From Scyliorhinus canicula (lineage: Eukaryota): a stretch of 64,000 nt of DNA. The position numbers and the translations under genes were made by a program. Every line of letters starts with the position of its first letter. The first letter of the stretch is position 1. Positions 4,201 through 37,562 of the stretch are shown piece after piece. Location: positions 43,177,159 to 43,241,158 of the forward strand of contig NC_052158.1 of NCBI RefSeq assembly GCF_902713615.1, in the 5' to 3' direction. Below the pieces are notes generated by a model. The model worked only from the letters and a program-made list of their open reading frames with translations, was not told the DNA's origin and made no database searches.

Positions 4201-4662
4201 TCATTGTGTTGAAAGGACATGGGAATATGTTGAGGGTGTGATAAGGGTATATATAAATGTGAACTATTTCTTTAGTTAACTTGCTCTCCACTTCATGTTA
4301 AAAATGTTTCATTTTTGACCAGAGCTCGTGGTCTCCTATCAATTAGAAATGGTTATTTTTTACACTCTACAGTCAACCTATTGTACGAACATATGAAACA
4401 GGAGCAGAAGTCAGTCATTTAGTCCCTTGAGTCAGCTCTGCCGTTCAATAAGATCACTGAAAAGTTTGTGTTTTGAATGCCACATTTCCATCTAGCCCCA
4501 ATAGATTTCTATTAGGCAAGGGAATCAAAATTTATCTACCTCCACCTTAGAAATATTCAGTGACTCTGCCTGCACTGCCTTCGCGGCAGAAAATTCCAAA
4601 GTTGCACAACCCTCTGAGAGAAAATATTTCTCCCTATCTGTCCTAAAAGGACGGCTCCTAAT

Positions 4663-4845
4663 GGGCTGGTTTAGCTCAGTGGGCTAGAGAGCTGGTTTGT
4701 AATGCAGAACAAGGTCAACAGTGCGGGTTCAATTTCCGTACCAGTTTACCTGAACGAGCGCCGGAATGTGGCAACTAGGGGCTTTTCACAGCAACTTCAT
4801 ACTTATGACAATAAAAGGTTATTATTATATTATTTATTATTATTA
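4663..4845 (+). mobile_element. tRNA-derived SINE (second family) with (TTA)n tail
   Basis: GGGCTGGTTTAGCTCAGTGGG A-box, GGTTCAATTTCC B-box, AATAAA followed by a TTA microsatellite. Confidence 0.75.
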
Positions 4846-4879
4846 AAACAGTGCCCTCTAGTTCTGGACACGCACAAGA

Positions 4880-5735
4880 ACAAAGAAAAGTACAGCACCT
4901 TCGGCCCTCCAAGCCTGTGCCGACCATGCTGCCTGTCTAAAACCCTCTCTACTTCCAGGGTCCATATCCCTCTAATCCCATTATATTCATGTATTTGTCA
5001 AAACGTTCCTTAAACTATTGTACCTGCTTCCACCACCTCCTCCGACAGCGAGTTCCAGGCACCCACTACACTCTGTAAAAAAAAACTTCCCTCGCACATC
5101 TCCTCTAAAATTTGCCCCTCGCACCTTAAACATATGTCCTCTAGTAATTGACTTTTCCACCCTGGGAAAAATCTTCTGACTATCCGCTCTGTCCATGCCC
5201 CTCATAATTTTGTAGACTTCTATCAGGTCGTCCCTCAACCTCCGTCGTTCCAGTGAGAGCAAACCAAGTTTATCCAAGCCCTCCATAGCAGGCAACATCC
5301 TGGTAAATCTCTTCTGTACCCTCTACAAAACCTCCAGATCCTACTGGTAGTGTGGAGACAAGAATTGAACACTATACTCCAAGTGTGGCCTAACTAAGGT
5401 TCTATAAAGCTGCAACATGACTTGCCAATTTTTATACTCAATGCCTCGGCAAGTATGCATTTTTATACTCAATGCCGTATGCATTCTTGACTACCTTCTC
5501 CACTTACGTTGCCCTTTCAGTGACCTGTGAACTTGTATACCCAGATCCCTGGGTAAAAGAGAAAACATCCTTTCAACATCCTCCTTGTCAATACCATTCA
5601 GGGTCTTGCATATTTCAATTAAGTCACCCCTCACTCTTCAAAACTCTATTGGAGACAAGCCCAGTCATTCCAGGTATCAATCTAGTGAACCTCCTCTGAA
5701 CCACCTCCAACACATTTACATCCTCTCTTAAATCC
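4880..5735 (-). mobile_element. CR1 LINE 3' fragments
   Basis: ORF 4987-5298(-): LGLLSLERRRLRDDLIEVYKIMRG...TRGHMFKVRG is the CR1 ORF2 C-terminus. Confidence 0.85.
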
Positions 5736-5753
5736 TAGGGAATTTTCATAGTA

Positions 5754-6155
5754 ACTTCATTGCAGCGTTAATGTAAACCTACTTTAACACTAATAAAGAT
5801 TATTATCATTGTAAGGAAACCAAAACTGCACACAGTATTCAACATGTGCTCTCATCAATACTCTGTATAACTGAAGCATAGCATCCTAACCTTTATGTTC
5901 TATTTTTCTCACAACAAATGACATAGCCTTCTAATCGCTAGACCTTTTGTGACTCATGCACGAGAACACCTAGTTCCTCCTGCACCGCAGAATTCTGCAG
6001 AGTTCTCCGTCAAAGTCACACTGCATTTTTATTCTTCCTGCTCAAGGGAACAGCTTCACATTTCCCACATTATACTTCTACCAGAGTTTTGCCCACTCAA
6101 CCTATTCATATCCATCTGTCCTCTCCTTGTGTCCTTTTCACAACGCCCTTTCCTA
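5754..6155. repeat. 402-bp host duplication, left copy
   Basis: Matches 16705-17106 apart from 3 substitutions I could see, all in the first ~75 bp. Starts inside a SINE tail that is continuous with sequence to its left. Confidence 0.95.
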
Positions 6156-6813
6156 AGTAAAACACTCGAACACGTCAGTAACGAATATTCGTTTATTTAC
6201 GGCCGGGACAAATCTCTAAGCAGTCGGGTAACTACCTTCGAGAAGTGCCAAAGTCCAAAATATGGACTGTCTCTTTATACAATCACAGCTTAGAGGTGGT
6301 CCCTTTAAATTCCTAGATACACCTATGATTTGGCAAGGATCCAGAACATGTACATATATGGAATTATTCTTCGAGGTCGGGAGGTTATTTTTGACATAAT
6401 CATTAGCACAAGTCACTATCAATATTAATACAAAGGTTTTTGTATCCCATGGCCATATGGCTCAACTCACTCTAAAGACAGTCCCTCTTACATTTCAATG
6501 TTTATTCGTTCCAACTGGTCAAACGAGCTTAATTATGTTATCTCTGCAATAAAGTAACGGTTCCCATTCATTCCATTCTTTGCCTTTTTGACCTCTCTGC
6601 TTTTACAGATACGGGTCAGAACATTAATTAGTACCAATGCCACACTCCCTATATTCCATCCCATAACCTTCTGACATCTTTGCTTTTACAGATGCCGGTC
6701 AGACACACTCCCTTTATTTCATCCCTTGACCTGTTGACATCTCTTTCACAGAGCTTTTCAGAACTGTTATATTAACTCTATCAGCGAAGTTCCAAATGAA
6801 ATCCACTTCTACA
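6156..6813 (-). repeat. ERV 3' LTR (658 bp)
   Basis: Minus strand TGTAGAAG...GTTTTACT; two differences seen versus 16047-16704; U3 contains imperfect ~85-bp direct repeats. Confidence 0.95.
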
Positions 6814-6858
6814 TTCCCCCCTTTGATCATTCCTTGATCACATAACACTCAGGATACT

Positions 6859-7736
6859 TTAGATGGAAATGAGAGCGAGGCGGAGGTACTCCTCCTCTAC
6901 TAGGCTCCGGCAGGATGCCACTTCCTCATATAGGTCAGGGGTAGGTGGAACCAGTGTTTCTTTTTCGTCTAGGGCGGATCTCTGAAGCATCTGTGGTAAT
7001 GCAGTGGCACCCAAACGGTTGCATAGGCATTTCACACCAGTAGCTATGATACAGAGCAACAAACAGATGGTAACGAAGATAATGAGCCCATGGAATAGGT
7101 AAGTGGCCCAAGAATTGGACCACATCCAGCTCCACCAGTCAGCCTGACCGGCGAGTCGCAAGCGCTGTACTCCATCTCTGATATGGGTTACCAGACGCGT
7201 GATATTCTCTGAACTGTCTGGAATATAACCCATGCAGCCGTCTGTTCGATCGAGAAAGGAACAGATATCAAGGGAACGCCTCCATGGGCATGGGTCGGGA
7301 CCCGTGTACATACCCAGCAAGAGGAGACACCCACTTTCTTAGCATAGACATAGGACATAAACAGAAATGAATTCGCCGTTACATGGTGCGTTGCCCGCTT
7401 CCTTCTGGAAGGCGAGTAGGGGTGAGTAGTCCTTGGTGGTAAAATTTGTACCCTGTCCTTATCAATGCACCGGTGGTTCCACCGGCATGTGCGGCGATCG
7501 TAGATCAGAACCATGTACGTAGTCAGGAATCGGGGCTTCTGGTCGTCGGGATGAACGGTGGTCGGGCAGGTGTTGATAAGGGTGGTGATCCATCGGAGAC
7601 CTGTCGTTGTTCCACATCGTGGGGTTCCTTCTCGGCACAGGGGTGGACGTCGGCTTCCATACGGGCATCTCCTTCCTTCGGATGCAGCGAGAGAGAGCAA
7701 GGTGGCGAGTATTGTGACGGCGAAGAGGGGCCTCAT
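6859..7736 (-). pseudogene. env: Deleted gamma-type env: signal peptide and early SU joined to the TM C-terminus
   Basis: 7188-7736: MRPLFAVTILATLLSLAA signal, RRKR, then SSCWVC (CxxC). 6859-7320 frame ends with WWSWMWSNSW, the TM helix YLFHGLIIFVTICLLLCII and a cytoplasmic tail. Most of SU and the TM ectodomain are absent. Confidence 0.85.
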
Positions 7737-7780
7737 CCTGGTACTCGTGTTCCTAGGACTTAAAGGAAAAGTTTAGAACA

Positions 7781-8833
7781 TCATGGATACTTAATTAACT
7801 TACAATGGTGCATATGTACCCATGCGTTCCGGCCCTCCACTTTTACTGCAGTGGGGGTAGTGAGTAGAACCTGTAGGGGACCCTCCCATCGAGGTTCCAA
7901 ACCCTTACGTGTCCAATTTCGAATTAGGACATAATCCCCAGGGTTGATGGAGACGTCATGAGTAATGGAGGGGACTTCTTCCTGGGTGGCACGAACTCGG
8001 GAGTGTAATCCTTTCAAAATTCTAGTTAGTGTTAATATATAATTAGCCATCTCGGTAGTCATGTAATGGAATTGAACATTCCGTGGAACACTGCTGTCCC
8101 AAGGCGTTCGAAAGGGTCTGCCATATAGTATTTCCGCTGGGCTTAGGCGAGTTTTTCCTGCGGGGGTGGCACGTAGCTGGAAGAGTGCTAAAGGCAGGAG
8201 TTTGAGCCAAGTGGCCCCAGTGTCTGCTTGTAGTTTAGCGAGTTTAGTCTTTAGAGTCTGATTAGCCCTTTCCACCACTCCAGCGGCTTGTGGTCTGTAG
8301 GCACAATGAAACTGTTGCTTTATTCCAAGCAGAGCACAGAATTCCTTATTGATTTGACCTATGAAGTGGGGACCATTGTCAGAGCTCAGCCGGGCTGGAA
8401 TTCCAAATCGCGGAACAATTTCTCGCATTAACACCTTAACTACTGTCGAGGCCTTGTTATCCGTAGTCGGGTAGGCCTCGATCCATTTGCTAAAAGTGTC
8501 CACAATGACTAACACATATTTATAGCATTGACATCTTTCCAACTCAATGTAATCCATTTGTAGGGTCTCAAATGGACCCTCAGGTAAGGGGGTTGTGCCA
8601 GGATCACAGGGGACGGCCTTACCGGGGTTGTGCTGTTGACAGATTAGGCACCGACTGCTAATTTGTTGGGCCATTTCTTGCAGTCGAGGGTGCCACCAGC
8701 TTTTTAACAATATGTCCCCTGTGGCACGAGCTCCACAGTGAGTTGCAAAGTGTACACATTCGGTCACCCAGGCTGCTAATGCATCGGTCATACATGTTTG
8801 TCCTACCGGGGTGACCCACAGCTTCGATATCAT
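7781..8833 (-). CDS. pol: Retroviral integrase domain (open frame, separated from upstream pol by a frameshift)
   Basis: HFATH..CLIC zinc finger, MDYI / SDNG / GVVERANQTLK (D,D35E), C-terminal WEGPLQVLLTTPTAVKVEG. Confidence 0.92.
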   Translation of the reverse strand: MISKLWVTPVGQTCMTDALAAWVTECVHFATHCGARATGDILLKSWWHPRLQEMAQQISSRCLICQQHNPGKAVPCDPGTTPLPEGPFETLQMDYIELERCQCYKYVLVIVDTFSKWIEAYPTTDNKASTVVKVLMREIVPRFGIPARLSSDNGPHFIGQINKEFCALLGIKQQFHCAYRPQAAGVVERANQTLKTKLAKLQADTGATWLKLLPLALFQLRATPAGKTRLSPAEILYGRPFRTPWDSSVPRNVQFHYMTTEMANYILTLTRILKGLHSRVRATQEEVPSITHDVSINPGDYVLIRNWTRKGLEPRWEGPLQVLLTTPTAVKVEGRNAWVHMHHCKLIKYP

Positions 8834-9800
8834 ATATACATCCTAAGTTTTTCCACATATTTACAGCAGTTGCAGGAGCGTCCTCCTGCATTTGGATTAT
8901 GTCAGCAATGGTTGGCATAGGTTTTTCAGAGGGGGACTTTCCCGAGGGGGTTTTAGTCTGCCTCATCATTCTAGGCACCATTAGTTTGCCAGATTTAGAA
9001 ATTTCTTTTGCCTTCTCGTCCGCTCTCCTGTTGCCCGTTTCCACCAGTCCTGTGCCTTTTGTATGCGCTGCGCATTTTATCACCGCTATCTTGTCTGGGA
9101 GCATAAGGGCCTGCAATAACTGGGTTACTAACTGCTGGTGTGAGATGGGTGTACCAGCGGAGGTTAGAAATCCTCTGTTTTTCCAATCAGTTCTTGATCG
9201 ATGATTGCATAGCCAGATTGTCTATCCCCCCTTTCGCCGACGGAAGAACTTCCAGCGGTGAAAAAGGAACAATCTGCACTTGGGAGGGGTATATCGGAGA
9301 GGTCGTCTCGAACCGAGGAGACTTCCTGCAACAGTTGCAGACAGTCATGAGTTGGGTCGAGCATGTCTGTGGGAGGATGCGTCAAAAAGTTAGCAGGGTT
9401 GATAGTGGTGCAGTGGGCAAACTGGACCTTTGGGTTATTAAGGAGAGCAATCTCATATCTATTCTGACGAGCCATCGTGAGATGCTGAGTCTGTAGCTGT
9501 CCCAAAAGGGCCGTAACAGAATGGGAACTATAGACAGTGATATCTTGTTGGAGGGTACTATTAGCAGCCGATTGCAGGCTGTTGTAGATAGCTGCAAGAA
9601 TTTGGGTACAGATAGGATAGCCAAGGGCTACCGGATCGAGTTTAGAGGAGTAGTATGCAACCGGGCGACAGCGGTCGCCGTGGCGTTGGGTCAGGACAGC
9701 TGTGGCGCAGTCGGCAAGGACTGTGCAATAGAGCTGAAAAGGGCGATCATATAAGGGTCGACCAAGGGCAGGGGCCTGGAGGAGTGCCTCCTTGAGGCGG
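8834..9800 (-). pseudogene. pol: ERV pol connection and RNase H, frameshifted
   Basis: LLQAPALGRP, PVAYYSSKLDPVA, TINPANFL, FTAGSS (catalytic D lost), IAVIKCAAH...GNRRADEKAK. Protease and RT core are absent. Confidence 0.9.
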
Positions 9801-10684
9801 TTCTGCTAGTGACTGTTTGTGATCAGCGGGCACTAGGACCCTGCGGAGCCATGCAGTGTCAATTTCAACGCAGCAGTTTCGAAACTGCTCAGCACAAATT
9901 CTTTATCTGTTTATTCTGAGACCAATGTAGTTCTGAACATACTGAGTTACTCATAATACTGATTGTGTTGTTCCTCGTGTCTTAATAAAGCTCGCAGTCT
10001 CAAGTGTGGAGAAGATGCTTTATTGTGGGTTCGTTCAGTTTCCAGAGCTCGACCTAGAACTACCTTCCAGTGCTAACTACCAGCTTTGCTTGCTGTGTGT
10101 CCTGCTTACCAGCCCCCCTGCTGTGAAGAGTGTGTCCTCACTTCCTGTCCTGATCTATTTATATGGCTCTCCCGTGCTCCCTCTAGTGGTCGCTCAGTTG
10201 TGTTGCATCTGGTTAACTTGTGATCACCACATCCCCCTTTTTCTCTTAACATATTTTCTGAACATCGTTAAAGAAAATTGTACATCCTGTCCCAGTGTAT
10301 TTATAGCTCTCCCGCTCGTGTTTGCTCTGTTGTTTTTTTTTTTATCTGGTCAATCTACGATCACCACATCCCCCTTTTTCTCATTACATAGTTTCTGTAC
10401 ATCATTAAAGAAATTTTATACAAAACAGTAACTTATGATATGCGTATCTATACAAGTGATGATGCTATTGCCTTAGTTAACAAAGCCAATGTATTTATAT
10501 GTCCAATCTTAATAAAAACATTTATGAGTCCAAACTTGATGAATTTGTTCAGAGCTTTTTTTTTTTTCTTTTTGTTGTTGATGACGTGGTGATATTGATA
10601 TTGCAAGTCCGCTGTGAATGTTGTTGGTGTTCCTTGTTATCTTAAGTACCCAATGCGTCATCCCGAGGTGTCTGCATGGTCACA

Positions 10685-13600
10685 TCACTGATGTTGACTG
10701 GCATGGACTTTTTTTCTGTGCTTGTGGTGTTGATTTATTGTCTCATCCGCCTTGGATGCTGGTGTGCTTTGCCATTGTGTACAAGTCGTTGTTTCATTGC
10801 TGTTGTTTCTGTCGTTCCTGTTTTTGTTGTTTCCGTTGCCGTACTTGTCGCTGTTTTTGTCGTTTCCGTCTTTGTTGTTGTCGCTATTTCTGCTCCTGAC
10901 TTTGTTGTGTTTGTTGCCATTCTTGTTGTTTCTGTCTCTGTCGTTGTCGCTATCTTTGTTCCTGACTTTGTTGTGTTTGTTGCCATTCTTGTTGTTTCTG
11001 CCTCTGTCGTTGTCGCTATCTTTGTGCCTGACGTTGTTGTTTGTCTTGTTGCGCTTCATGTTGCTTTTATTCTTGCTGTTGTCGTTCTCGTTTCTGCTGT
11101 GCTTCTTGCTATTGTTGTTTGTCTTGTCGCGCTTCATGTTGCTTTTCTTCTTGCTGTTGTCGTTCTCGTTTCTGCTGTGCTTCTTGCTATTGTTGTTGGT
11201 CTTGTCGCGCTTCATGTTGTTTTTGTTCTTGCTGTGTTTCTTTTGACTTTTGTTTTTCTTGTTATACTCTGTGAGTGTCCCGAGTGGATAATTTGAGTCA
11301 TTGAGCATTCCGTCTCGCGAGTGGTGCGAATGATCTGATGTTGCATCGGTGCAGGTGACATCAATCAGTTGTGGAGAATTGGATTCCGCATCTTTGCTTT
11401 CTTGGTGCTCGTCTTCCGGAGTCAAAGTCTTCTCGATTACATTTGACGCGGTGTCTGTGGACTCTCGGCGCTCCTCTTCTGGAGTCCAAATCTGCATGAT
11501 TTCAGTTGACGTGGTTTCTCTAGACTCTTGGTGCTCCGCTTCTGGAGTTAAAATCTTCATGATTTCTGTTGATGTTATCTCACTGGACTCCAGGTGCTCC
11601 TCTTCTGGAGTCAAAATCTGCATGGTTTCTTTTTGTTTGATGTCTCTGGACTCCAGGTGCTCCTCTTCTGGAGTCAGAATCTGCATGGTTTCTTTCGGCA
11701 TTGTCTCTGTGGACTCCAGGTGCTCCTCTTCTGGAGTCAAAATCTGCATGTTTTCTTTTGGCGTTGTCTCTCTGGGCTCCAGGTGCTCCTCTTCTGGAGT
11801 CAAAATCTGCATGTTTTCTTTCGGCATCGTCTCTCTGGACTGTTGGGTGGCCCGACTCTGTGCTTCTGTACAGACAAGCTGAGAACTGTCAGTCTCACTG
11901 TGATCCTGTACGTCGAGTGCGAGCACCTTGTCACTGTCTTCGCATGCAGTGGGCAGAGGTGCATTGTCTTCTTCTTGTTCCTGTGAGCGTGTTGGACTTT
12001 CATAGTCTGCTCTTGCTTCTTGTTCCTGTGAGCGTGTTGGACTTTCATAGTCTGCTTTTGGTTGCTCAGGTACAGCGGGTTTACCTTCATGGTCTTGTTC
12101 ATGCTTGGTGTCCGCCCGGGAGTGTTTGCTTGCATCCCTGTTGGCGTCTTTCATCACTCGCACTGTGGAGCCTGTCATCGCTCGCTCCGTGGAGTCTTCC
12201 TGTGCTCTCTGTGTGGCGTCGTCTTCGTCTTGGGTATTGCTGTCATCCAATGTATCGACGAGCTGCCATGGCACCATGGTGTTGGATTCATCCACCATGA
12301 GTAGAGTCGTGTTGAGCTTTGCAACGGTGTCGCTGATGCTGTGATCAGCATGTCCAAATAACTCCTCCATGTCTGAGTAGTATTCTTTGAAACCCATTTC
12401 ATCTTCGTTGGCTTCTTCTACCACGAGTTGATTCGTGTTGAACTTTGCGACCGTGTCGCTGATGCTGTGATAAGCATATCCGACTGACTCAGCTGTGTCT
12501 GAGTAGTATTCTCCGAAAACCAAATCATCCTGGTTGGATTCTTCTACCACGAGTTGATTCGTGTTGAACTTTGCGACCGTGTCGCTGATGCTGTGATAAG
12601 CATATCCGACTGACCCAGTCAGGTCTGAGAGGTAATCGTCGAAAAACAAATCATCTTTTGTTGTTTCGGAATTCTTTTTGTTCGCTTCACTGTGTGTGGT
12701 GAAGGCAGCTTTTTCCAAGGTTTTGTGCAAGTTGTTTTTCACTGTTGGTTTAAGTTCAGGCGTTTTTCTGTGTTCTGAGGCAAGAAAATTTGGTTTTACC
12801 ACTTTAAGTGTCTTGTTTTCAATTTTCGGGCATTTCCCTTTTAAGTGGGCGTGGTCAGGATTCTCAGACGTCATGACGTCACGCGTAGGAACGACTTGCA
12901 CATGCGCAAATCGGCTTTCTTTCCTTGTGCGGTTCGGTGTCCATTGCGCATGCGCGGCTTGCGCATGCGCATGACGGTCCGCGACGAAGACTTTTTTTGA
13001 CTGCGCATGCGCGGCTTGCGCATGCGCATAACGATCGGCACCGCGATCTTTTGTAAACTGCGCATGCGCGACTTCCGGTTCCGGCGCACGCGCGACTTCC
13101 GGTTCCGGCGCATGCGCAACTTCCGGTTCCGGCGCATGCGCAGATGCGATTTGTAGTTCTTTGCTTACCAGAGACTGCAAAATGTGCTCCAACGCCATTT
13201 TATCGCGGATTTCAGCGTTTTTTTTTTCTAAAAGTTGTAAGTTACCTTTTCTTACCGATCTGGACTGGATTTCAGCGTTTTGGCTTTGTGAAAAATTCAT
13301 GTTATTTCTTCTTTTTGATCTGTACTGTGCATTCGCGATTTCCTGATCTTTTTGTGATTTTTTAAGTCTTGCATCACTCAGTCTCTGTGCAGGTTGGACT
13401 GTGAGCATGCCTTGCTGTTCAAATTTCTCACAGTACTCTTCAAATTTGTTTAGTAACGTTTGTAAGCTGTTCCTGTCTTCACCTTTTGAGTGTTTAAATC
13501 CATTATACACTTTCCTATTGACAGGCCCTTCGATGAGAATTGCTATTTTAATTTTGTCTGAGACTTCTGCAACATCATTAGCTATGAGATAAAAATCGAA

Positions 13601-13732
13601 CATTTGTTTAAACCTTTTCCAGACATTTCTTACATTACCAGTCGTGTCCAGCTGAGGTGGGTATCCATGCCACATCCTCGAATTAGCGATGTCTTCCCCA
13701 GTCAAATGTCCAGTAGGAGATTTCCATGCCAT
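10685..13732 (-). CDS. 1015-aa Gypsy Gag N-terminal domain fused to a tandem-repeat low-complexity tail
   Basis: PPQLDTTGNVRNVWKRFKQMFDFYLIAND...KIAIL...LLNKFEEYC resembles the Gypsy Gag N-terminus; good Kozak (AAAATGG) about 50 nt after the PBS; seven types of in-frame repeat follow. Confidence 0.85.
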   Translation of the reverse strand: MAWKSPTGHLTGEDIANSRMWHGYPPQLDTTGNVRNVWKRFKQMFDFYLIANDVAEVSDKIKIAILIEGPVNRKVYNGFKHSKGEDRNSLQTLLNKFEEYCEKFEQQGMLTVQPAQRLSDARLKKSQKDQEIANAQYRSKRRNNMNFSQSQNAEIQSRSVRKGNLQLLEKKNAEIRDKMALEHILQSLVSKELQIASAHAPEPEVAHAPEPEVARAPEPEVAHAQFTKDRGADRYAHAQAAHAQSKKVFVADRHAHAQAAHAQWTPNRTRKESRFAHVQVVPTRDVMTSENPDHAHLKGKCPKIENKTLKVVKPNFLASEHRKTPELKPTVKNNLHKTLEKAAFTTHSEANKKNSETTKDDLFFDDYLSDLTGSVGYAYHSISDTVAKFNTNQLVVEESNQDDLVFGEYYSDTAESVGYAYHSISDTVAKFNTNQLVVEEANEDEMGFKEYYSDMEELFGHADHSISDTVAKLNTTLLMVDESNTMVPWQLVDTLDDSNTQDEDDATQRAQEDSTERAMTGSTVRVMKDANRDASKHSRADTKHEQDHEGKPAVPEQPKADYESPTRSQEQEARADYESPTRSQEQEEDNAPLPTACEDSDKVLALDVQDHSETDSSQLVCTEAQSRATQQSRETMPKENMQILTPEEEHLEPRETTPKENMQILTPEEEHLESTETMPKETMQILTPEEEHLESRDIKQKETMQILTPEEEHLESSEITSTEIMKILTPEAEHQESRETTSTEIMQIWTPEEERRESTDTASNVIEKTLTPEDEHQESKDAESNSPQLIDVTCTDATSDHSHHSRDGMLNDSNYPLGTLTEYNKKNKSQKKHSKNKNNMKRDKTNNNSKKHSRNENDNSKKKSNMKRDKTNNNSKKHSRNENDNSKNKSNMKRNKTNNNVRHKDSDNDRGRNNKNGNKHNKVRNKDSDNDRDRNNKNGNKHNKVRSRNSDNNKDGNDKNSDKYGNGNNKNRNDRNNSNETTTCTQWQSTPASKADETINQHHKHRKKVHASQHQ
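12865..13145. promoter_or_regulatory. CpG-rich cluster of NRF1-, ETS/GABP- and CRE-like motifs inside the A1 ORF
   Basis: TGACGTCA at 12874-12881, about seven GCGCATGCGC cores, three ACTTCCGG in a 24-bp tandem. Same cluster in A2 near 36360-36640. Confidence 0.45.
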
Positions 13733-14067
13733 TTTGTGCTTTCTGTATCTGCAGCTGAGTTGTCCTGTCGTAAGCGTCCTGAAATCACTGCTGGTACCAT
13801 GTGTTGTTCCTCGTGTCTTAATAAAGCTCGCAGTCTCAAGTGTGGAGAAGATGCTTTATTGTGGGTTCGTTCAGTTTCCAGAGCTCGACCTAGAACTACC
13901 TTCCAGTGCTAACTACCAGCTTTGCTTGCTGTATGTCCTGCTTACCAGCCCCCCTGCTGTGAAGAGTGTGTCCTCACTTCCTGTCCTGATCTATTTATAT
14001 GGCTCTCCCGTGCTCCCTCTAGTGGTCGCTCAGTTGTGTTGCATCTGGTTAACTTGTGATCACCACA

Positions 14068-14445
14068 CTGATCACATTCCAGGGGCGGTGGCGGAGGTGG
14101 CTGTGGGGGCTGTGGAGGCTGTGGGGGCTGTGGGGGCTTTTGACGTCCCCCGCAATTGAACATGTTCCTCATCCTAATCGTCCCCCTCCCCCCCAACCTT
14201 GCTTCGCATTGCTGACCGGCGCCGGGGGGAGGAGTAGCATTCTTACATTTCTTATATTCTTTACATTCCCTTTTTAAGACCTCTACTGTTTTAACAATTC
14301 CCCCTTTGGTGAGGCCAATACCCAATTTTGAGGCATTTGCCTGCCAGCTAGCCAGTATAGATGCATCTTTCATTAACTGACAGTATTCCCTCCACAAGGC
14401 AATTAATTTCTTTGCGGTGGGTTCTTGATAATACAGAAAAATGTG
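14068..14445 (-). pseudogene. gag: ERV gag N-terminal fragment with proline-rich segment
   Basis: KKLIALWREYCQLMK...QKPPQPPQPPQPPQPPPPPP, interrupted by A1; a short remnant continues at ~9830-9963 before the deletion into pol. Confidence 0.65.
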
Positions 14446-15212
14446 TCATTTGAAACATGAAAGTCTGGCAATATCTGGTTTAAGAGGGTACAGGGAGAGA
14501 TCCCACAAAAGGTTAATAGCAGCTGCAAAGAGCAGGGTTATAAAATGCAGATTCCTGCGCACAAGCAGGCCTCAGCAGACACACAGGCTTCATGTGGTAA
14601 GCTAAAACAATGGCTCACACCTTCATGGAATGTAACTATCTCAGAAAGCATCTGAAAAGCATGGATGAGAGTTTCAATTGCATTAAGTGACGAATGTTTA
14701 AAACAGGCAAGTCTTTCAAGTCACAACCAAGTTAAATTTTAGCATACAGCTAAGAGCAAAGTTTCACACCTTAATTGAAATAAACTCTCTTAGTAAACAG
14801 CTGGAAAGAATGGAAGATGCTCAGTCGAATTTAGTGTCAATTTAAGGGGTAAAATTCTACGAACATCAAGTTAATTAAAAGAAAATTGGAGATGACCTGG
14901 CTACGAGAAACATCATTTAAGTCAAAATCAAAGGCAAAGTTATGAACTGGGGACAATTGGAAAATTAAACGATTTGAAATCACAGAAATAAAAGTTAACT
15001 ATTGAAACAAAAGCATTTTTTAAATCAAATCTGAGAGGAGACGATATGCCTGAAATGAATAACGAGTTGTAGTAAGATGTTTACATCAAAGATACTTTTA
15101 AACTATCAAAGTGAAACAAGCCCATATACAATACAGTCGTTAAAACTTAATAACTCTTCGAAAGAGAATATAAACCCAGGGAGCAGAAGCAGCAGCACTC
15201 TGTCACAGCAAC

Positions 15213-15258
<46 letters not shown>

Positions 15259-15511
15259 CGCAGCCTGCTGGAGAAAGACAAGGAAATCTGTAACTGACTT
15301 TGTAAGCAAATATCAACGATAACCCACTAGGATAGACAAGGAAAGCAGCCAAATTTAAACAGCTAATACAACTCAAGAAGACCAGATTTTAAGTGGTTAT
15401 TAGCTTACTTCACTTCCTTAATAACACAGGACCCAGGACACCAATGCTATTAAGGGGTAAGTAGGTAAAATTCTTCGGTGAAGGTATGGGTTATACCGGG
15501 GGATAGGCTCC

Positions 15512-15750
15512 GAGAACCCCGCCCGTAACTTCCAGAGAACGCTGCCTGGAATCACGGCGGCAGTCCCGTCCGGAGCCCACAGCCCGTTAACCGTCCCCTA
15601 GCAATCCTGAGAACCCCGCCCGTAACTCCAGCGAACGCTGCCTGGAATCACGGCGGCTCCTCAGGCTGCCCCTAGCAGTCCTGGCAACCCCGCCCGTAAC
15701 TCCAGCGAACGCTGCCTGGAATCACGGCGGCAGTCCCAGGCTGCCCCTAG
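15512..15750. repeat. Three imperfect tandem repeats (~45-nt core) in the ERV leader, next to a splice donor
   Basis: Core AACCCCGCCCGTAACTCCAGCGAACGCTGCCTGGAATCACGGCGG x3; minus-strand donor G|GTAAGT at 15775-15781. Confidence 0.85.
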
Positions 15751-16046
15751 AGACGATAACCACAGGGTTCACTCACTTACCCTCTTTAAAACGGGTTCGC
15801 TGGACTGACCTGGATCTCGCAGAGGCTTCTCGACAACCAACGGCAAGGCTGAGCAACGATCAAACTGGTAGTAGGCGAATACCAAGGTGGAAAACAAATT
15901 TTTACTCACGTTGGGGGCCAAATTCGTCCTCTACTTTGAACGAGCTCAGTCGATTATGCCGGTTAGTTGCGCAGACCCCTCTGGAGATCCCCATACAGGC
16001 CACCAAATGTGAATTGCGCTTTCACGTATCTGATCGTCAGTCCAGA

Positions 16047-16704
16047 AGTAAAACACTCGAACACGTCAGTAACGAATATTCGTTTATTTACGGCCGGGAC
16101 AAATCTCTAAGCAGTCGGGTAACTACCTTCGAGAAGTGCAAAAGTCCAAAATATGGACTGTCTCTTTATACAATCACAGCTTAGAGGTGGTCCCTTTAAA
16201 TTCCTAGATACACCTATGATTTGGCAAGGATCCAGAACATGTACATATATGGAATTATTCTTCGAGGTCGGGAGGTTATTTTTGACATAATCATTAGCAC
16301 AAGTCACTATCAATATTAATACAAAGGTTTTTGTATCCCATGGCCATATGGCTCAACTCACTCTAAAGACAGTCCCTCTTACATTTCAATGTTTATTCGT
16401 TCCAACTGGTCAAACGAGCTTAATTATGTTATCTCTGCAATAAAGTAACGGTTCCCATTCATTCCATTCTTTGCCTTTTTGACCTCTCTGCTTTTACAGA
16501 TACGGGTCAGAACATTAATTAGTACCAATGCCACACTCCCTATATTCCATCCCATAACCTTCTGACATCTTTGCTTTTACAGATGCCGGTCAGACACACT
16601 CCCTTTATTTCATCCCTTGACCTGTTGACATCTCTTTCACAGAGCTTTTCAGAACTGTTATATTAACCCTATCAGCGAAGTTCCAAATGAAATCCACTTC
16701 TACA
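16047..16704 (-). repeat. ERV 5' LTR (658 bp)
   Basis: Near-identical to 6156-6813; followed on the minus strand by TC-TGGACTGACGATCAG at the PBS position. Confidence 0.95.
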
Positions 16705-17106
16705 ACTTCATTGCAGTGTTAATGTAAACCTACTTTAACACTAATAAAGTTTATTATCATTGTAAAGAAACCAAAACTGCACACAGTATTCAACATGTGC
16801 TCTCATCAATACTCTGTATAACTGAAGCATAGCATCCTAACCTTTATGTTCTATTTTTCTCACAACAAATGACATAGCCTTCTAATCGCTAGACCTTTTG
16901 TGACTCATGCACGAGAACACCTAGTTCCTCCTGCACCGCAGAATTCTGCAGAGTTCTCCGTCAAAGTCACACTGCATTTTTATTCTTCCTGCTCAAGGGA
17001 ACAGCTTCACATTTCCCACATTATACTTCTACCAGAGTTTTGCCCACTCAACCTATTCATATCCATCTGTCCTCTCCTTGTGTCCTTTTCACAACGCCCT
17101 TTCCTA
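16705..17106. repeat. 402-bp host duplication, right copy
   Basis: Matches 5754-6155 and runs directly into a CR1 remnant (17107-17270, minus) on its right. Confidence 0.95.
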
Positions 17107-17320: not shown

Positions 17321-17602
17321 TTCCCCCTCAGATTGCCATCTATTCTGAAGATATTGTAGAATGGGGACAGCCCAACACGTTGATCTGTTTGGCCGATAGA
17401 TTCTTCCCTCCGCACATCTCCATGACGTGGAGAAAAAACAATGAAGAACTGACTGACGGAGTCAACCTCACAGAGTTCTATATTAAAAAGGATTATTCCT
17501 ACCAAAGATTCACATACCTGAGCTTCATCCCCAGTCCAGGAGACATGTATTCCTGTCATGTGGAACATCAAGGTCTGGAGGAGCCAACAACTGTGTTCTG
17601 GG
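17321..17602 (+). CDS. mhc2a: MHC class II alpha chain, alpha-2 (C1-set Ig) exon
   Basis: Acceptor TTTCCTGTCTCTTCTCACAG, donor GTTAGT, phase 1/1, 282 bp, open: VPPQIAIYSEDIVEWGQPNTLICLADRFFPP...W...YSCHVEHQGLEEPTTVFW. Both Ig cysteines and the Trp are present; close to nurse-shark class IIA as recalled. Confidence 0.93.
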
Positions 17603-23828: not shown

Positions 23829-24496
23829 ACTTAATTTTCTTTCTTTTTGTCTAACCTAATCTAACTAGTTCTTTCAAAGCCAACTGTCCTGGTACCATCT
23901 TTTATTACACTCCTGTATCATCTTTTAGTACACTTTGTATGTTTTGATATACCACGGAATGTAATATGTGTTACTCAAACCTTGGTTGCTGATGAGGTTT
24001 TCTGAATCTCAAACTTGTCCAGTAGTAACAAAAGGTTTATTGAGTAACTATAACAATAATTGCGTGAGTTCTTTACTTTAACATTGATACTAGTGATAAG
24101 GTTAACCAGATCTTAACCAGATGTTATGAACCAGACTTTTTTAAAGATCTTAAAGTAAGGGAACTTAATTTTCTTTCTTTTTGTCTAACCTAATCTAACT
24201 AGTTCTTTCAAAGCCAACTGTCCTGGTACCATCTTTTATTACACTCCTGTATCATCTTTTAGTACACTTTGTATGTTTTGATATACCACGGAATGTAATA
24301 TGTGTTACTCAAACCTTGGTTGCTGATGAGGTTTTCTGAATCTCAAACTTGTCCAGTAGTAACAAAAGGTTTATTGAGTAACTATAACAATAATTGCGTG
24401 AGTTCTTTACTTTAACATTGATACTAGTGATAAGGTTAACCAGATCTTAACCAGATGTAATGAACCAGACTTTATTAAAGATCTTAAAGTAAGGGA
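23829..24496. repeat. 334-bp tandem duplication spanning the PBS, part of the LTR and the CR1 5' junction
   Basis: Units 23829-24162 and 24163-24496, nearly identical. Confidence 0.92.
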
Positions 24497-26795
24497 ACAC
24501 TTAGGAAGCAGCGATCATAATATGGTTGAGTTCAGTCTGCAGTTTGAAAGAGAGAAGGCAAAATTGGATGTAATGGTGTTACAGTTAAATAAAGGTAATT
24601 ACGAGGGCATGAGAGAGGAACTGGTGAAAATCAACTGGAAGCAGACCCTAGCAGGGAAGACAGTAGAGCAAAAATGGCAGGAGTTTGTATGCATAATTGA
24701 GGACACTGTACAGAGGTTCATCCCCAAGAAAAGAAAGATTATCCAGGGAGGGATTAGACAGCCATGGCTGACAAAGGAGGTCAGGAAATGTATCAAAGAA
24801 AAAGAGAGATCCTATAAAGTGGCCAAAAGCACCGGGAAATCAGAAGATTGGGAAGGCTACAAAAACAAACAGAGGTTAACAAAGAGACAAATAAGGAAGG
24901 AGAGGATCAAATATGAAGGCAGGCTAGCCAGTAATATAAGAAATGATAGTAAAAGTTTCTTTCAATACATAAGAAACAAACGTCAGGCCAAAGTAGACAT
25001 TGGGCCAATTCAAACTGATTCTGGAAGGCTAGTGATGGGAGATGAGGAAATGGCTGGAGAACTTAATAAGTACTTTGCGTCTGTCTTCACAGTGGAAGAC
25101 GTTAGTAATATCCCAAAAATTATAAAGGGTCAGGGGGCTGAGTTGAGTATGGTTGCCATTACAAAAGAGATGGTGCTAAAAAAGCTAAAAGGTCTTAAAA
25201 TTGACAAATCTCCTGGCCCCGATGGGCTACATCCTAGAGTTCTGAGGGAGGTGGCTGAAGAAATAGCGGAAGCGTTGGTTGAGATCTTTCAAAAATCACT
25301 GGAGTCAGGGAAAGTCCCGGACGATTGGAAGATCGCTGTTGTAACCCCCTTGTTCAAGAAAGGATCAAGACAAAAGATGGAAAATTATAGGCCAATTAGC
25401 CTAACCTCGGTTGTTGGTAAAATTCTAGAATCGATCGTTAAGGATGAGATTTCTAATTTCTTGGAAGAGCAGGGTCGGATTAGAACAAGTCAACATGGAT
25501 TTAGTAAGGGGAGGTCGTGCCTGACGAACCTGTTAGAATTCTTTGAGGAGGTGACAAGTAGGTTAGACCAGGGAAACCCAGTGGATGTGGTCTATCTGGA
25601 TTTCCAAAAGGCCTTTGATAAGGTGCCACACAGGAGGCTGCTGAGTAAGGTGAGGGCCCATGGTGTTCGAGGTGAGCTACTGGCATGGGTTGAGGATTGG
25701 CTGTCTGACAGAAGGCAGAGAGTTGGGATAAAAGGTTCTTTTTCGGAATGGCAGCCGGTGACCAGCGGTGTCCCACAGGGTTCAGTGTTGGGGCCGCAGC
25801 TGTTCACCATATATATTAATGATCTGGATGAAGGGACTGGGGGCATTCTAGCGAAGTTTGCTGATGATACGAAGTTAGGTGGTCAGGCAGGTAGTGCTGA
25901 GGAAGTGGGGAGGCTGCAGAAGGATCTAGACAGTTTGGGAGAGTGGTGCAGGAAATGGCTGATGCATTTCAACGTGAGAAAATGTGAGGTCTTGCACTTT
26001 GGAAAAAAGAATCCAAGCATAGACTACTTTCTAAACGGTGAGAAAATTCATAATGCCAAAGTACAAAGGGATCTGGGAGTGCTAGTCAAGGATTCCCTAA
26101 AGGTAAACATGCAGGTTGAATCCGTGATTAAGAAAGCGAATGCTATGTTGTCATTTATCTCAAGAGGGTTGGAATATAAAAGCAGCGATGTGCTACTGAG
26201 CCTTTATAAGGCTCTGGTTAGGCCCCATTTGGAGTACTGTGTCCAGTTTTGGGCCCCACATCTCAGGAAGGACATACTGGCACTGGAGCGTGTCCAGCGG
26301 AGATTCACACGGATGATCCCTGGAATGGCGGGTCTAGCATATGAGGAACGGCTGGCGTTCCTGGGATTGTATTCATTGGAGTTCAGAAGGTTAAGGGGAG
26401 ATCTAATAGAAACTTACAAGATTATACATGGCTTAGAAAGGATGGACGCAAAGAAACTGTTTCCGTTAGGCGAGGAGTCGAGGACCCGTGGGCACAGCCT
26501 TAGAATTAGAGGGGGTAAATTCAAAACAGAAATGCGGAGACATTTCTTCAGCCAGAGAGTGGTGGGCCTGTGGAATTCATTGCCGCAGAGTGCAGTGGAG
26601 GCCGGGACGCTAAATGGCTTCAAGGCAGAGATAGATAAATTCTTGATGTCGCGAGGAATTAAGGGCTATGGGGAGAATGCTGGGAGGTGGAGTTGAAATG
26701 CCCATCAGCCATGATTGAATGGCGGAGTGGACTCGATGGGCCGAATGGCCTTACTTCCACTCCTATGTCTTATGGTCTTATGGTCTTATGGTCTT
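24448..26795 (+). mobile_element. Young 5'-truncated CR1 LINE inserted in the LTR of element B
   Basis: (TATGGTCT)n 3' tail at ~26765-26795; ATCT on both sides; uninterrupted ORF2. Confidence 0.95.
24522..26696 (+). CDS. CR1 ORF2 reverse transcriptase (N-terminally truncated)
   Basis: 724 aa with KSPGPDG, YRPISLTS, QHGF, DFQKAFDKV, GVPQGSVLGP, FADD. Confidence 0.93.
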   Translation: MVEFSLQFEREKAKLDVMVLQLNKGNYEGMREELVKINWKQTLAGKTVEQKWQEFVCIIEDTVQRFIPKKRKIIQGGIRQPWLTKEVRKCIKEKERSYKVAKSTGKSEDWEGYKNKQRLTKRQIRKERIKYEGRLASNIRNDSKSFFQYIRNKRQAKVDIGPIQTDSGRLVMGDEEMAGELNKYFASVFTVEDVSNIPKIIKGQGAELSMVAITKEMVLKKLKGLKIDKSPGPDGLHPRVLREVAEEIAEALVEIFQKSLESGKVPDDWKIAVVTPLFKKGSRQKMENYRPISLTSVVGKILESIVKDEISNFLEEQGRIRTSQHGFSKGRSCLTNLLEFFEEVTSRLDQGNPVDVVYLDFQKAFDKVPHRRLLSKVRAHGVRGELLAWVEDWLSDRRQRVGIKGSFSEWQPVTSGVPQGSVLGPQLFTIYINDLDEGTGGILAKFADDTKLGGQAGSAEEVGRLQKDLDSLGEWCRKWLMHFNVRKCEVLHFGKKNPSIDYFLNGEKIHNAKVQRDLGVLVKDSLKVNMQVESVIKKANAMLSFISRGLEYKSSDVLLSLYKALVRPHLEYCVQFWAPHLRKDILALERVQRRFTRMIPGMAGLAYEERLAFLGLYSLEFRRLRGDLIETYKIIHGLERMDAKKLFPLGEESRTRGHSLRIRGGKFKTEMRRHFFSQRVVGLWNSLPQSAVEAGTLNGFKAEIDKFLMSRGIKGYGENAGRWS

Positions 26796-32912: not shown

Positions 32913-35900
32913 TGTGTTGTTCCTCGTGTCTTAATAAAGCTCGCAGTCTCAAGTGTGGAGAAGATGCTTTATTGTGGGTTCGTTCAGTTTCCAGAGCTCG
33001 ACCTAGAACTACCTTCCAGTGCTAACTACCAGCTTTGCTTGCTGTGTGTCCTGCTTACCAGCCCGCCTGCTGTGAAGAGTGTGTCCTCACTTCCTGTCCT
33101 GATCTATTTATCTGGCTCTCCCGTGCTCCCTCTAGTGGTCGCTCAGTTGTGTTGCATCTGGTTAACTTGTGATCACCACATCCCCCTTTTTCTCTTAACA
33201 TATTTTCTGAACATCGTTAAAGAAAATTGTACATCCTGTCCCAGTGTATTTATAGCTCTCCCGCTCGTGTTTGCTCTGTTGTTTTTGTATCTGGTCAATC
33301 TACGATCACCACATCCCCCTCTTTCTCATTACATAGTTTCTGTACATCATTAAGGAAAATTATACAAAACAGTAACTTATGATATGCGTATCTATACAAG
33401 TGATGATGCTATTGCCTTGGTTAACAAAGCCAATGTATTTATATGTCCAAACTTAATAAACACATTTATGAGTCCAAACTTGATGAATTTGTTCAGAGCT
33501 TTTTTTTTTTTTTCTTTTTGTTGTTGATGACGTGGTGATATTGATATTGCAAGTCCGCTGTGAATATTGTTGGTGTTCCTTGTTATCTTAAGTACCCAAT
33601 GCGTCATCCCGAGGTGTTTGCATGGTCACATCACTGATGTTGACTGGCATGGACTTTTTTTTGTGCTTGTGGTGTTGATTTATTGTCTCATCCGCCTTGG
33701 ATGCTGGTGTGCTTGCTTGTTCTGGAGCAGACGTGAGTTTGTGCGATTCGTTGTCATCCCATGACATGTTTGTAGTCTTGTTATCATTTTGCAGTGTGCT
33801 GTGGCATCGTCCATCATGTGCCAAGTAGTGCCATTGTGTACAAGTCGTTGTTTCATTGCTGTTGTTTCTGTCGTTCCTGTTTTTGTTGTTTCCGTTGCCG
33901 TACTTGTCGCTGTTTTTGTCGTTTCCGTCTTTGTTGTTGTCGCTATCTTTGCTCCTGACTTTGTTGTGTTTGTTGCCATTCTTGTTGTTTCTGCCTCTGT
34001 CGTTGTCGCTATCTTTGTGCCTGACGTTGTTGTTTGTCTTGTTGCGCTTCATGTTGCTTTTATTCTTGCTGTTGTCGTTCTCGTTTCTGCTGTGCTTCTT
34101 GCTATTGTTGTTGGTCTTGTCGCGCTTCATGTTGTTTTTGTTCTTGCTGTGTTTCTTTTGACTTTTGTTTTTCTTGTTATACTCTATGAGTGTCCCGAGT
34201 GGATAATTTGAGTCATTGAGCATTCCGTCTCGCGAGTGGTGCGAATGATCTGATGTTGCATCGGTGCAGGTGACATCAATCAGTTGTGGAGAATTGGATT
34301 CCGCATCTTTGCTTTCTTGGTGCTCGTCTTCCGGAGTCAAAGTCTTCTTGATCACATTTGACGCGGTGTCTGTGGACTCTCGGCGCTCCTCTTCTGGAGT
34401 CCAAATCTGCATGATTTCAGTTAACGTGGTTTCTCTAGACTCTTGGTGCTCCGCTTCTGGAGTTAAAATCTTCATGATTTCTGTTGATGTTATCTCACTG
34501 GACTCCAGGTGCTCCTCTTCTGGAGTCAAAATCTGCATGGTTTCTTTTTGTTTGATGTCTCTGGACTCCAGGTGCTCCTCTTCTGGAGTCAGAATCTGCA
34601 TGGTTTCTTTCGGCATTGTCTCTGTGGACTCCAGGTGCTCCTCTTCTGGAGTCAAAATCTGCATGTTTTCTTTTGGCGTTGTCTCTCTGGACTGTTGGGT
34701 GGCCCGACTCTGTGCTTCTGTACAGACAAGCTGAGAACTGTCAGTCTCACTGTGATCCTGTACGTCGAGTGCGAGCACCTTGTCACTGTTTTCGCTCTGT
34801 GCTTCGGTACAGACAAGCTGAGAACTGTCAGTCTCACTGTGATCCTGTACGTCGAGTGCGAGCACCTTGTCACTGTTTTCGCTCTGTGCTTCGGTACAGA
34901 CAAGCTGAGAACTGTCAGTCTCACTGTGATCCTGTACGTTGAGTGTGATCACCTTGTCACTGTCTTCGCATGCAGTGGGCAGAGGTGCATTGTCTTCTTC
35001 TTGTTCCTGTGAGCGTGTTGGACTTTCATAGTCCGCTCTTTCTTCTTGTTCCTGTGAGCGTGTTGGACTTTCATAGTCTGCTTTTTCTTCTTGTTCCTGT
35101 GAGCGTGTTGGACTTTCATAGTCCGCTCTTTCTTCTTGTTCCTGTGAGCTTGGTAGACTTTCATAGTCTGCTTGCGGTTGCTCAGGTACAGCGGGTTTAT
35201 CTTCATGGTCTTGTTCATGCTTGGTGTCCGCCCGGGAGTGTTTGCTTGCATCCCTGTTGGCGTCTTTCATCACTCGCACTGTGGAGCCTGTCATCGCTCG
35301 CTCCGTGGAGTCTTCCTGTGCTCTCTGTGTGGCGTCGTCTTCGTCTTGGGTATTGCTGTCATCCAATGTATCGACGAGCTGCCATGGCACCATGGTGTTG
35401 GATTCATCCACCATGAGTAGAGTCGTGTTGAGCTTTGCAACGGTGTCGCTGATGCTGTGATCAGCATGTCCAAATAACTCCTCCATGTCTGAGTAGTATT
35501 CTTTGAAACCCATTTCACCTTCGTTGGCTTCTTCTACCACGAGTTGATTCGTGTTGAACTTTGCGACCGTGTCGCTGATGCTGTGATAAGCATATCCGAC
35601 TGACTCAGCCATGTCTGAGTAGTATTCTCCGAAAACCAAATCATCCTGGTTGGATTCTTCTACCACGAGTTGATTCGTGTTGAACTTTGCGACCGTGTCG
35701 CTGATGCTGTGATAAGCATATCCGACTGTCTCAGCCATGTCTGAGAGGTAATCTTCGAAAAACAAATCATCTTGGTTGGATTCATCTACCACGAGTTGAT
35801 TCGTGTTGAACTTTGCGACCGTGTCGCTGATGCTGTGATAAGCATATCCGACTGACTCAGCCATGTCTGAGTAGTATTCTTTGAAAACCAAATCATCTTG

Positions 35901-37562
35901 GTTGGATTCATCTACCACGAGTTGGTTCGTGTTGTGCTTTGCGACCGTGGCGCTGATGCTGTGATAAGCATATCCGACTGACTCAGCTATGTCTGAGTAG
36001 TATTCTTCGAAAACCAAAGCATTTTGGTTGGATTCATCTACCACGAGTTGGTTCGTGTTGTACTTTGCGACCGTGTCGCTGATGCTGTGATAAGCATGTC
36101 CGACTGACCCAGTCAGGTCTGAGAGGTAATCGTCGAAAAACAAATCATCTTTTGTTGTTTCGGAATTCTTTTTGTTCGCTTCACTGTGTGTGGTGAAGGC
36201 AGCTTTTTCCAAGGTTTTGTGCAAGTTGTTTTTCACTGTTGGTTTAAGTTCAGGCGTTTTTTTTGTGTTCTGAGGCAAGAAAATTTGGTTTTACCACTTT
36301 AAGTGTCTTGTTTTCAATTTTCGGGCATTTCCCTTTTAAGTGGGCGTGGTCAGGATTCTCAGACGTCATGACGTCACGCGTAGGAACGACTTGCACATGC
36401 GCAAATCGGCTTTCTTTCCTTGTGCGGTTCGGTGTCCATTGCGCATGCGCGGCTTGCGCATGCGCATGACGGTCCGCGACGAAGACTTTTTTTGACTGCG
36501 CATGCGCGGCTTGCGCATGCGCATAACGATCGGCGCCGCGATCTTTTGTAAACTGCGCATGCGCGACTTCCGGTTCCGGCGCACGCGCGACTTCCGGTTC
36601 CGGCGCATGCGCAACTTCCGGTTCCGGCGCATGCGCAGACGCAATTTGTAGTTCTTTGCTTACCAGAGACTGCAAAATGTGCTCCAACGCCATTTTATCG
36701 CGGATTTCAGCGTTTTTTCTTTCTAAAAGTTGTAAGTTACCTTTTCTTACCGATCTGGACTGGATTTCAGCGTTTTGGCTTTGTGAAAAATTCATGTTAT
36801 TTCTTCTTTTTGATCTGTACTGTGCATTCGCGATTTCCTGATCTTTTTGTGATTTTTTAAGTCTTGCATCACTCAGTCTCTGTGCAGGTTGGACTGTGAG
36901 CATGCCTTGCTGTTCAAATTTCTCACAGTACTCTTCAAATTTGTTTAGTAACGTTTGTAAGCTGTTCCTGTCTTCACCTTTTGAGTGTTTAAGTCCATTA
37001 TACACTTTCCTATTGACAGGCCCTTCGATGAGAATTGCTATTTTAATTTTGTCTGAGACTTCTGCAACATCATTAGCTATGAGATAAAAATCGAACATTT
37101 GTTTAAACCTTTTCCAGACATTTCTTACATTACCAGTCGTGTCCAGCTGAGGTGGGTATCCATGCCACATCCTCGAATTAGCGATGTCTTCCCCAGTCAA
37201 ATGTCCAGTAGGAGATTTCCATGCCATTTTGTGCTTTCTGTATCTGCAGCTGAGTTGTCCTGTCGTAAGCGTCCTGAAATCACTGCTGGTACCATGTGTT
37301 GTTCCTCGTGTCTTAATAAAGCTCGCAGTCTCAAGTGTGGAGAAGATGCTTTATTGTGGGTTCGTTCAGTTTCCAGAGCTCGACCTAGAAATACCTTCCA
37401 GTGCTAACTACCAGCTTTGCTTGCTGTGTGTCCTGCTTACCAGCCCGCCTGCTGTGAAGAGTGTGTCCTCACTTCCTGTCCTGATCTATTTATCTGGCTC
37501 TCCCGTGCTCCCTCTAGTGGTCGCTCAGTTGTGTTGCATCTGGTTAACTTGTGATCACCACA
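32913..37562 (-). mobile_element. Non-autonomous Gag-only LTR element, copy A2 (4650 bp)
   Basis: 268-bp LTRs 32913-33180 and 37295-37562 (1 mismatch); TSD GCTGG (32908-32912, 37563-37567); same PBS and PPT as A1. Confidence 0.95.
33588..37227 (-). CDS. ~1212-aa Gag-repeat-tail protein of A2, split by a +1 nt change in an A8 run near 36257-36264
   Basis: ORFs 36250-37227 (325 aa) and 33588-36278 (896 aa) join into the A1 homologue if one base is removed from the homopolymer. Confidence 0.75.

Follow-up and report, generated by a model that had tools for sequence, protein, structure and literature searches.

A provirus between two 402-bp copies of host DNA in an MHC class II alpha intron of Scyliorhinus canicula: a probable one-ended germline integration

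How does a provirus come to lie between two 402-bp copies of the same host DNA, when its relatives in the genome are typically bounded by duplications of 4 bp? The question is raised by an endogenous retrovirus (ERV) of Scyliorhinus canicula found in a stretch of 64,000 nucleotides of contig NC_052158.1 (positions 43,177,159 to 43,241,158), referred to here as the window; all coordinates are positions within it, and the genome searched comprises 4.2 Gb. The host gene is a class II alpha gene of the major histocompatibility complex (MHC), and the provirus lies in its intron 2, antisense to the gene. Our analysis indicated that the locus probably records a one-ended integration in the germline, completed by host repair. 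The long terminal repeats (LTRs) and the two copies of the duplicated host segment, X, on which this reading depends are as follows.

5754..6155, plus strand: X1, the left copy of the host duplication, continuous with the left flank and stopping at the aberrant junction; base 6155 can be assigned to the host or to the LTR
6156..6813, minus strand: 3' LTR of 658 bp, whose U5 end lacks its last 38-39 bp, with the terminal CA among them, as judged by comparison with the 5' LTR and with relatives
16008..16704, minus strand: complete 5' LTR of 697 bp, TG...CA, its U3 end forming a normal integrase-type junction
16705..17106, plus strand: X2, the right copy of the host duplication, continuous with the right flank

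A comparison of both copies bore out the duplication described in the initial annotation: X1 and X2 are 402 bp each and differ at three sites (X1 positions 5766, 5799, and 5815). The edges of X belong to high-copy host repeats. Relatives of these repeats align through the left edge in the X1 context alone (2/2 relatives tested), and those at the right edge align through it in the X2 context alone (5/5 tested). This continuity shows that X is host DNA and points to the pre-insertion order left flank, X, right flank, so that an allele with a single X presumably preceded the insertion. Thus, the earlier description of X as host DNA continuous on the respective sides was correct, whereas its statement that X begins within a short interspersed element (SINE) and ends within a CR1 element uses labels of that annotation for what our searches identified as high-copy host repeats.

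Genome searches scoring 40 candidates each returned two near-identical copies of X only; among these best 40 candidates, the remaining matches reached no more than ~94%, over short repeat pieces. This result bears on a pseudo-duplication derived from an older segmental duplication, in which one member of a near-identical pair of MHC segments would have received the provirus, the 402-bp overlap being what remained after a deletion from inside the other segment into the LTR. MHC class II alpha genes are indeed multicopy, with four alpha-1 exons on the same contig (C13), and the part of PMC5488345 that deals with the human HERV-K(HML-2) group discusses such models, together with excision by recombination between repeats. 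Nevertheless, the paralogous alpha-2 exons are only 83% identical, and the scenario needs a very young, otherwise traceless duplication along with a deletion that hit within 402 bp of the homologous point; its recombination version would have kept the LTR ends intact, unlike those observed here. We consider this explanation highly improbable.

The ends of the provirus are unequal. The U3 end is complete and abuts X2 (junction 16704/16705) as in relatives, whereas the U5 end of the 3' LTR is clipped by 38-39 bp and joined to X1 with 1 bp of microhomology. No imperfect homology beyond this 1 bp was hidden at the aberrant junction, the longest shared word nearby being 6 bp and lying away from the breakpoint. 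The length of 697 bp for the complete LTR agrees with the span covered by each of the 40 best genome matches. Between the comparable stretches (6156-6813 and 16047-16704), 656 sites match and 2 of 658 differ; the two differences reported earlier were thus recovered, whereas the unequal length of the LTRs, with the missing part of U5, had gone unnoticed. A U5 end already defective in the virus was considered as well and set aside in view of the normal CA end of the 5' LTR.

The duplication lengths at other loci of this ERV, proposed earlier as a check, were determined at two sets of insertion sites. A 35-mer of the LTR had 517 exact matches in the genome, and the first 100 in contig order, unselected for end state, gave 70 insertion sites, all on contigs C1-C3, at which flanks of ~1 to 6 kb were compared. 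An exact 4-bp duplication was found at 60 of the 70 and a 4-bp duplication with one mismatch at five more, one of which also lacked the first LTR base. The remainder comprised one site with a long duplication, two whose broken end had no duplication beside it, and two running into N. Thus, 4 bp is the family norm (65/68 resolved sites), and the long duplication accounts for 1/68, with a 95% interval of ~0.04-8% (computed for 1/67). The second set, biased toward full-length LTRs, consisted of 28 sites after one locus (L012) had been left out as a duplicate of another (L063): 22 had an exact 4-bp duplication, one had a single mismatch, one was an intact solo LTR without duplication, three had broken ends without duplication, and one was unresolved. 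Over both sets, an abutting long duplication was present at none of the 89 sites with both ends intact and at one of the six with a broken end.

That one site, on contig C2 (L110/L111, ~54.696-54.704 Mb), is the mirror image of the provirus in the window. Its U5 end is exact and its U3 end is clipped by 49 bp; it carries a 46-bp host duplication with one difference and has no microhomology at the junction. Its LTR pair shows 3 mismatches in 644 aligned sites, with a tandem-repeat expansion in the 5' LTR that is absent from the 3' LTR.

The census also yielded observations on individual copies. Five copies (L179, L184, L180, L107, and L166) have one end broken or doubled and lack a host duplication next to it; they could be deletion-type aberrant integrations or the result of later deletions. 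The solo LTR without a 4-bp duplication (L170, G000:C2:274183689-274184385) is complete and has unrelated flanks, possibly due to recombination between the LTRs of two loci. In another copy (L183/L191, contig C7), an insertion of ~9.8 kb interrupts the 3' LTR, and the copy's own 4-bp duplication is intact.

Concerted integration leaves both outer ends complete, TG...CA, and a short family-specific duplication; at the locus in the window, one outer end is 38-39 bp short, and 402 bp stand in place of 4 bp. One-ended integration leaves one integrase-exact end and a truncated end on a long host duplication or deletion, and these are, respectively, the U3 end on X2 and the U5 end on X1. Aberrant single-end integration with host repair, as originally suggested, was thus supported by the presence of the predicted truncated end, by the family norm of 4 bp, and by the coupling of a clipped end with a long duplication on C2.

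We also considered whether the arrangement was produced in assembly, the left flank and X of an empty haplotype having been wrongly linked to the haplotype that carries the provirus. Short-read contigs of 4 of the 13 listed sequencing runs were compared over positions 4300-6500. In run X9, which may derive from the assembled individual itself, one whole contig spans 5767-6155: it starts just after the first difference between the copies of X and ends exactly at the breakpoint, with two other letters, the number that X2 has there, and with a depth of 11.9 against a single-copy depth of 5.9. The doubled depth and the end at 6155 form the pattern expected of two collapsed X copies that fork after 6155. 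A single-copy contig starting at 6126 would account for the depth that remains (implied 6.2 vs 5.9), with a possible share from other repeats. In run X10, a contig at 5756-6096 has two other letters and a depth of 6.2 vs 4.6-4.9, and it is not assignable to an allele; three further letters differ in 206 bp of the left flank. Runs other than X9 were uninformative on the junction: host repeats and family LTRs dominate the matches, and the runs labelled X1 and X2 (read runs, distinct from the copies of X) gave nothing usable in X. A false join would fit the run of N that lies more than 10 kb upstream of the left copy in the same intron, the clustering of the differences (a haplotype switch inside the left copy), and the lack of a bridging record among the 32 contig pieces listed, beside which there are 54,965 others. 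On the other hand, the window contains no N, a comparison of it with the 17 kb upstream shows no other duplication of at least 95%, the X9 contig stops precisely at the fork, and the site on C2 independently pairs a long duplication with a clipped end. Read support for the junction is indirect; an artefact appears very unlikely.

The initial annotation had further argued that X and the LTRs are of similar age. The divergences are compatible, since 3/402 and 2/658 do not differ (Fisher P = 0.37, with wide intervals), and the two LTR differences equal the median of 30 LTR pairs of the family. Nevertheless, all three differences in X fall within its first 62 bp, for which simulation gave a chance of 0.0035 at that end and 0.007 at either end, the 62-bp window having been picked after the data were seen. 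No difference occurs in the last 340 bp, in line with the LTR divergence (P = 0.36), and the polarity of the three differences relative to repeat relatives is mixed (2, 2, and 13 relatives). The clustering makes X a poor clock and weakens the age argument. The simplest accounts of it would be a later allelic exchange, a gene conversion over the remainder of X, or an assembly that switched between haplotypes. The divergences permit a duplication made during integration, and the sequence would look the same had the duplication arisen afterward.

This leaves room for a repair event after a normal integration with its 4-bp duplication. A later break at the U5 junction would have been mended by copying the left flank through X, from an empty homologue or a sister chromatid, and end-joining the product to the resected LTR, so that ~398 bp of X replaced 38-39 bp of U5. 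Such a course should yield the identical anatomy, and the near-blunt junction agrees with it. If the left copy came partly from another haplotype, X would be expected to be at least as divergent as the LTRs, as it is, and the letters seen in the left flank in run X10 show that alleles differ at such a level. Broken ends without duplication are, in addition, common in the family (five sites). However, it requires an independent second break within 39 bp of a provirus end, and within 49 bp on C2, whereas integration itself, as is generally known, already leaves a lesion at precisely that place; a left copy taken wholly from the other haplotype would have its differences spread over X rather than confined to 62 bp. 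We therefore regard a later break as unlikely, but as an explanation to be kept in mind.

One-ended integration, completed by host repair, remains the reading we favor. It draws on one exact end combined with one clipped end with 1 bp of microhomology, on the 4-bp norm with no long duplication at the 89 intact-end sites and the mirror case on C2, and on the X9 contig ending at 6155 with doubled depth along with the 340 identical bp of X. The anatomy, the norm, and the C2 site are observed; from them we infer the order of steps, the enzymes, and a timing at integration. Integrase would have joined the viral U3 end in the normal way to X's first base (16704/16705), and the U5 end would not have been joined by integrase. 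After a loss of 38-39 bp, host enzymes would have attached the U5 end at a distance of 402 bp, on the target-duplicating side: host DNA at X's far edge would have served as template for extension of the free viral 3' end or as its ligation partner. Repair would then have copied X, which came to stand at both ends of the provirus, and allelic exchange or gene conversion within X may later have produced the clustered differences.

Several points weigh against this reading. Microhomology is only 1 bp here and 0 bp on C2, while PMC5041404, in the portion relevant here, describes a short homologous segment as usual at the aberrant junction, though not always present. The normal CA end of the 5' LTR gives no sign of a defective U5 substrate such as that of Rous sarcoma virus (RSV) mutants. 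At five of the six other resolved broken-end sites, there is no abutting duplication, so that LTR ends of this family also break by other routes. Neither a junction-bridging record nor an empty-allele contig was present among the 32 contig pieces listed. Finally, the clustered differences of mixed polarity indicate that X has a history of its own.

The phenomenon is of a known kind, since germline cases with duplications of 61-450 bp and the same explanation are already in print for HERV-K(HML-2), as excerpts of the two papers concerned attest. In those excerpts, PMC4422153 describes HML-2 loci with long direct repeats, including a 3'-truncated provirus with 450 bp at 21q21.1, and attributes them to inefficient integration resembling that of RSV U5 mutants. 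Long target duplications given there and in the excerpts of PMC5488345 measure 250 bp at 7p21.2, 111 bp at 6p25.2, and 13-206 bp at others; the latter paper counts 8 of 451 putative HML-2 target-site duplications over 10 bp and confirms empty alleles for the 250-bp and 111-bp loci. Like these loci, some of which are truncated at one end, the provirus in the window is a germline insertion within a long near-identical host duplication, and the frequencies are similar (8/451 over 10 bp vs 1/68 in this family), as far as the quoted parts go. Virus lineage and host are different, the latter having a fish-type MHC gene and a genome of 4.2 Gb, and so is the family norm of 4 bp; in addition, both LTRs are present, which allows the clipped length to be read exactly. 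An empty allele has been established for 7p21.2 and 6p25.2 according to the same excerpts, and not here.

In experiments, according to the sections of PMC5041404 on the subject, one-ended integration occurs with end mutants of RSV and avian sarcoma and leukosis virus (ASLV) and with HIV-1 under suboptimal integrase inhibitors or with weak integrase, and it produces one normal end, another end that is often truncated, and host repeats of hundreds to thousands of bp. The locus in the window shares the integrase-type end, the truncated end, and the duplication of hundreds of bp with the integrants described in those sections; unlike them, it is natural and inherited, has no evident mutated end and 1 bp of microhomology, and its timing is a reconstruction. 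Among the titles listed in our literature search, whose coverage leaves out most subscription journals, none dealt with a long target duplication in an ERV of a fish or shark. What this family adds is an exact clipped end, a mirror case, and enough members to count events.

The remaining features of the provirus were identified as follows.

6814..6825, minus strand: polypurine tract ahead of the 3' LTR, identical to the sequence ahead of relatives' 3' LTRs
6859..7772, minus strand: env-like remnant in two reading frames, without a Pfam match
7781..8842, minus strand: integrase reading frame with the Pfam domains H2C2, rve, and MLVIN_C
8658..9805, minus strand: remnants of RNase H and of the tether between reverse transcriptase (RT) and RNase H, in separate frames
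9964..14067, minus strand: later nested insertion of an unrelated LTR element with 268-bp LTRs (1 difference) and a 5-bp target duplication
14068..15987, minus strand: leader and gag-like remnant, without a Pfam match for the frame tested
15988..16005, minus strand: primer-binding site, two bases beyond the 5' LTR end

The LTRs, primer-binding site, polypurine tract, integrase, and a region in the position of env, whose frames lack Pfam matches, identify the element as a class I ERV. The env label is our assumption, based on position and resemblance, and the primer-binding site is presumably of the tRNA-Ile type; two of its 18 positions are unlike those of most relatives, though the LTRs are young. 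No RT core was recognised in the provirus, and ~160 bp found in relatives is missing from region 8658-9805. The integrase with MLVIN_C, the RNase H with tether, and the 4-bp duplication resemble those of class I (gamma/epsilon-like) ERVs; a 4-bp duplication is also made by XMRV, according to the relevant part of PMC2857682. By contrast, among solved structures, the integrase core comes closest to foamy virus integrase (E 2e-23), and any placement at the level of genus is tentative. LTR pairs of the family are mostly 5.5-7 kb apart, and only ~0-50 bp separate the gag-like part from the tether in the copies compared (L179-L184). With so little sequence there, the common family form seems to lack protease and RT and would have had to be mobilised in trans.

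The nested element contains a 1056-aa frame with internal tandem repeats and no Pfam match, and no pol was recognised in that copy. It and the element at 32913-37562 are two young copies of one LTR element, each with 268-bp LTRs, 1 difference per pair, and a 5-bp duplication; a more diverged copy is contained in L196.

The initial annotation had placed the provirus next to an MHC exon. The MHC gene was confirmed, and the position was refined to intron 2; the exon in question is the following.

17321..17602, plus strand: alpha-2 (C1-set) exon of the MHC class II alpha gene

Located ~12 kb upstream of the window is the alpha-1 exon; the transmembrane/cytoplasmic exon follows ~1.6 kb past the window's end. 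No effect of the provirus on the gene is indicated, as open frames are present in all three exons located and the provirus is intronic and antisense. The introns of the gene are long (~29 kb and ~48 kb), and intron 3 contains a 336-bp head-to-tail duplication with 99.4% identity (23829-24498). The four alpha-1 exons on C13 lie at 42.06-43.24 Mb, inside ~1.1 Mb. The paralogous genes were also tried as substitutes for an empty site and rejected as too diverged, no homologue of X being present in their sequences compared.

We tentatively suggest, as a possibility somewhat short of an even chance, that one-ended integration recurs in this young family of several hundred copies as a regular side effect of its spread through the germline, at ~1-3% of insertions, at either LTR end, and with near-blunt joins, and perhaps more often if broken ends without duplication represent the deletion-type outcome. 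In that case, a full census of the family could serve to test the host-repair model on natural cases far outside the mammals; by way of its 402-bp repeats, the provirus could leave the MHC intron without a trace, giving rise to false "empty" alleles. Recombination between the copies of X would mimic an allele that never carried the insertion, so that presence or absence at this MHC locus is ambiguous. Annotation tools that demand a 4-6-bp duplication will miss such copies or set their boundaries wrongly. The locus suggests that a rearranging outcome known from cell culture can pass through the germline of a distant vertebrate; with its fixed norm of 4 bp and hundreds of sites, the family allows aberrant events to be counted.

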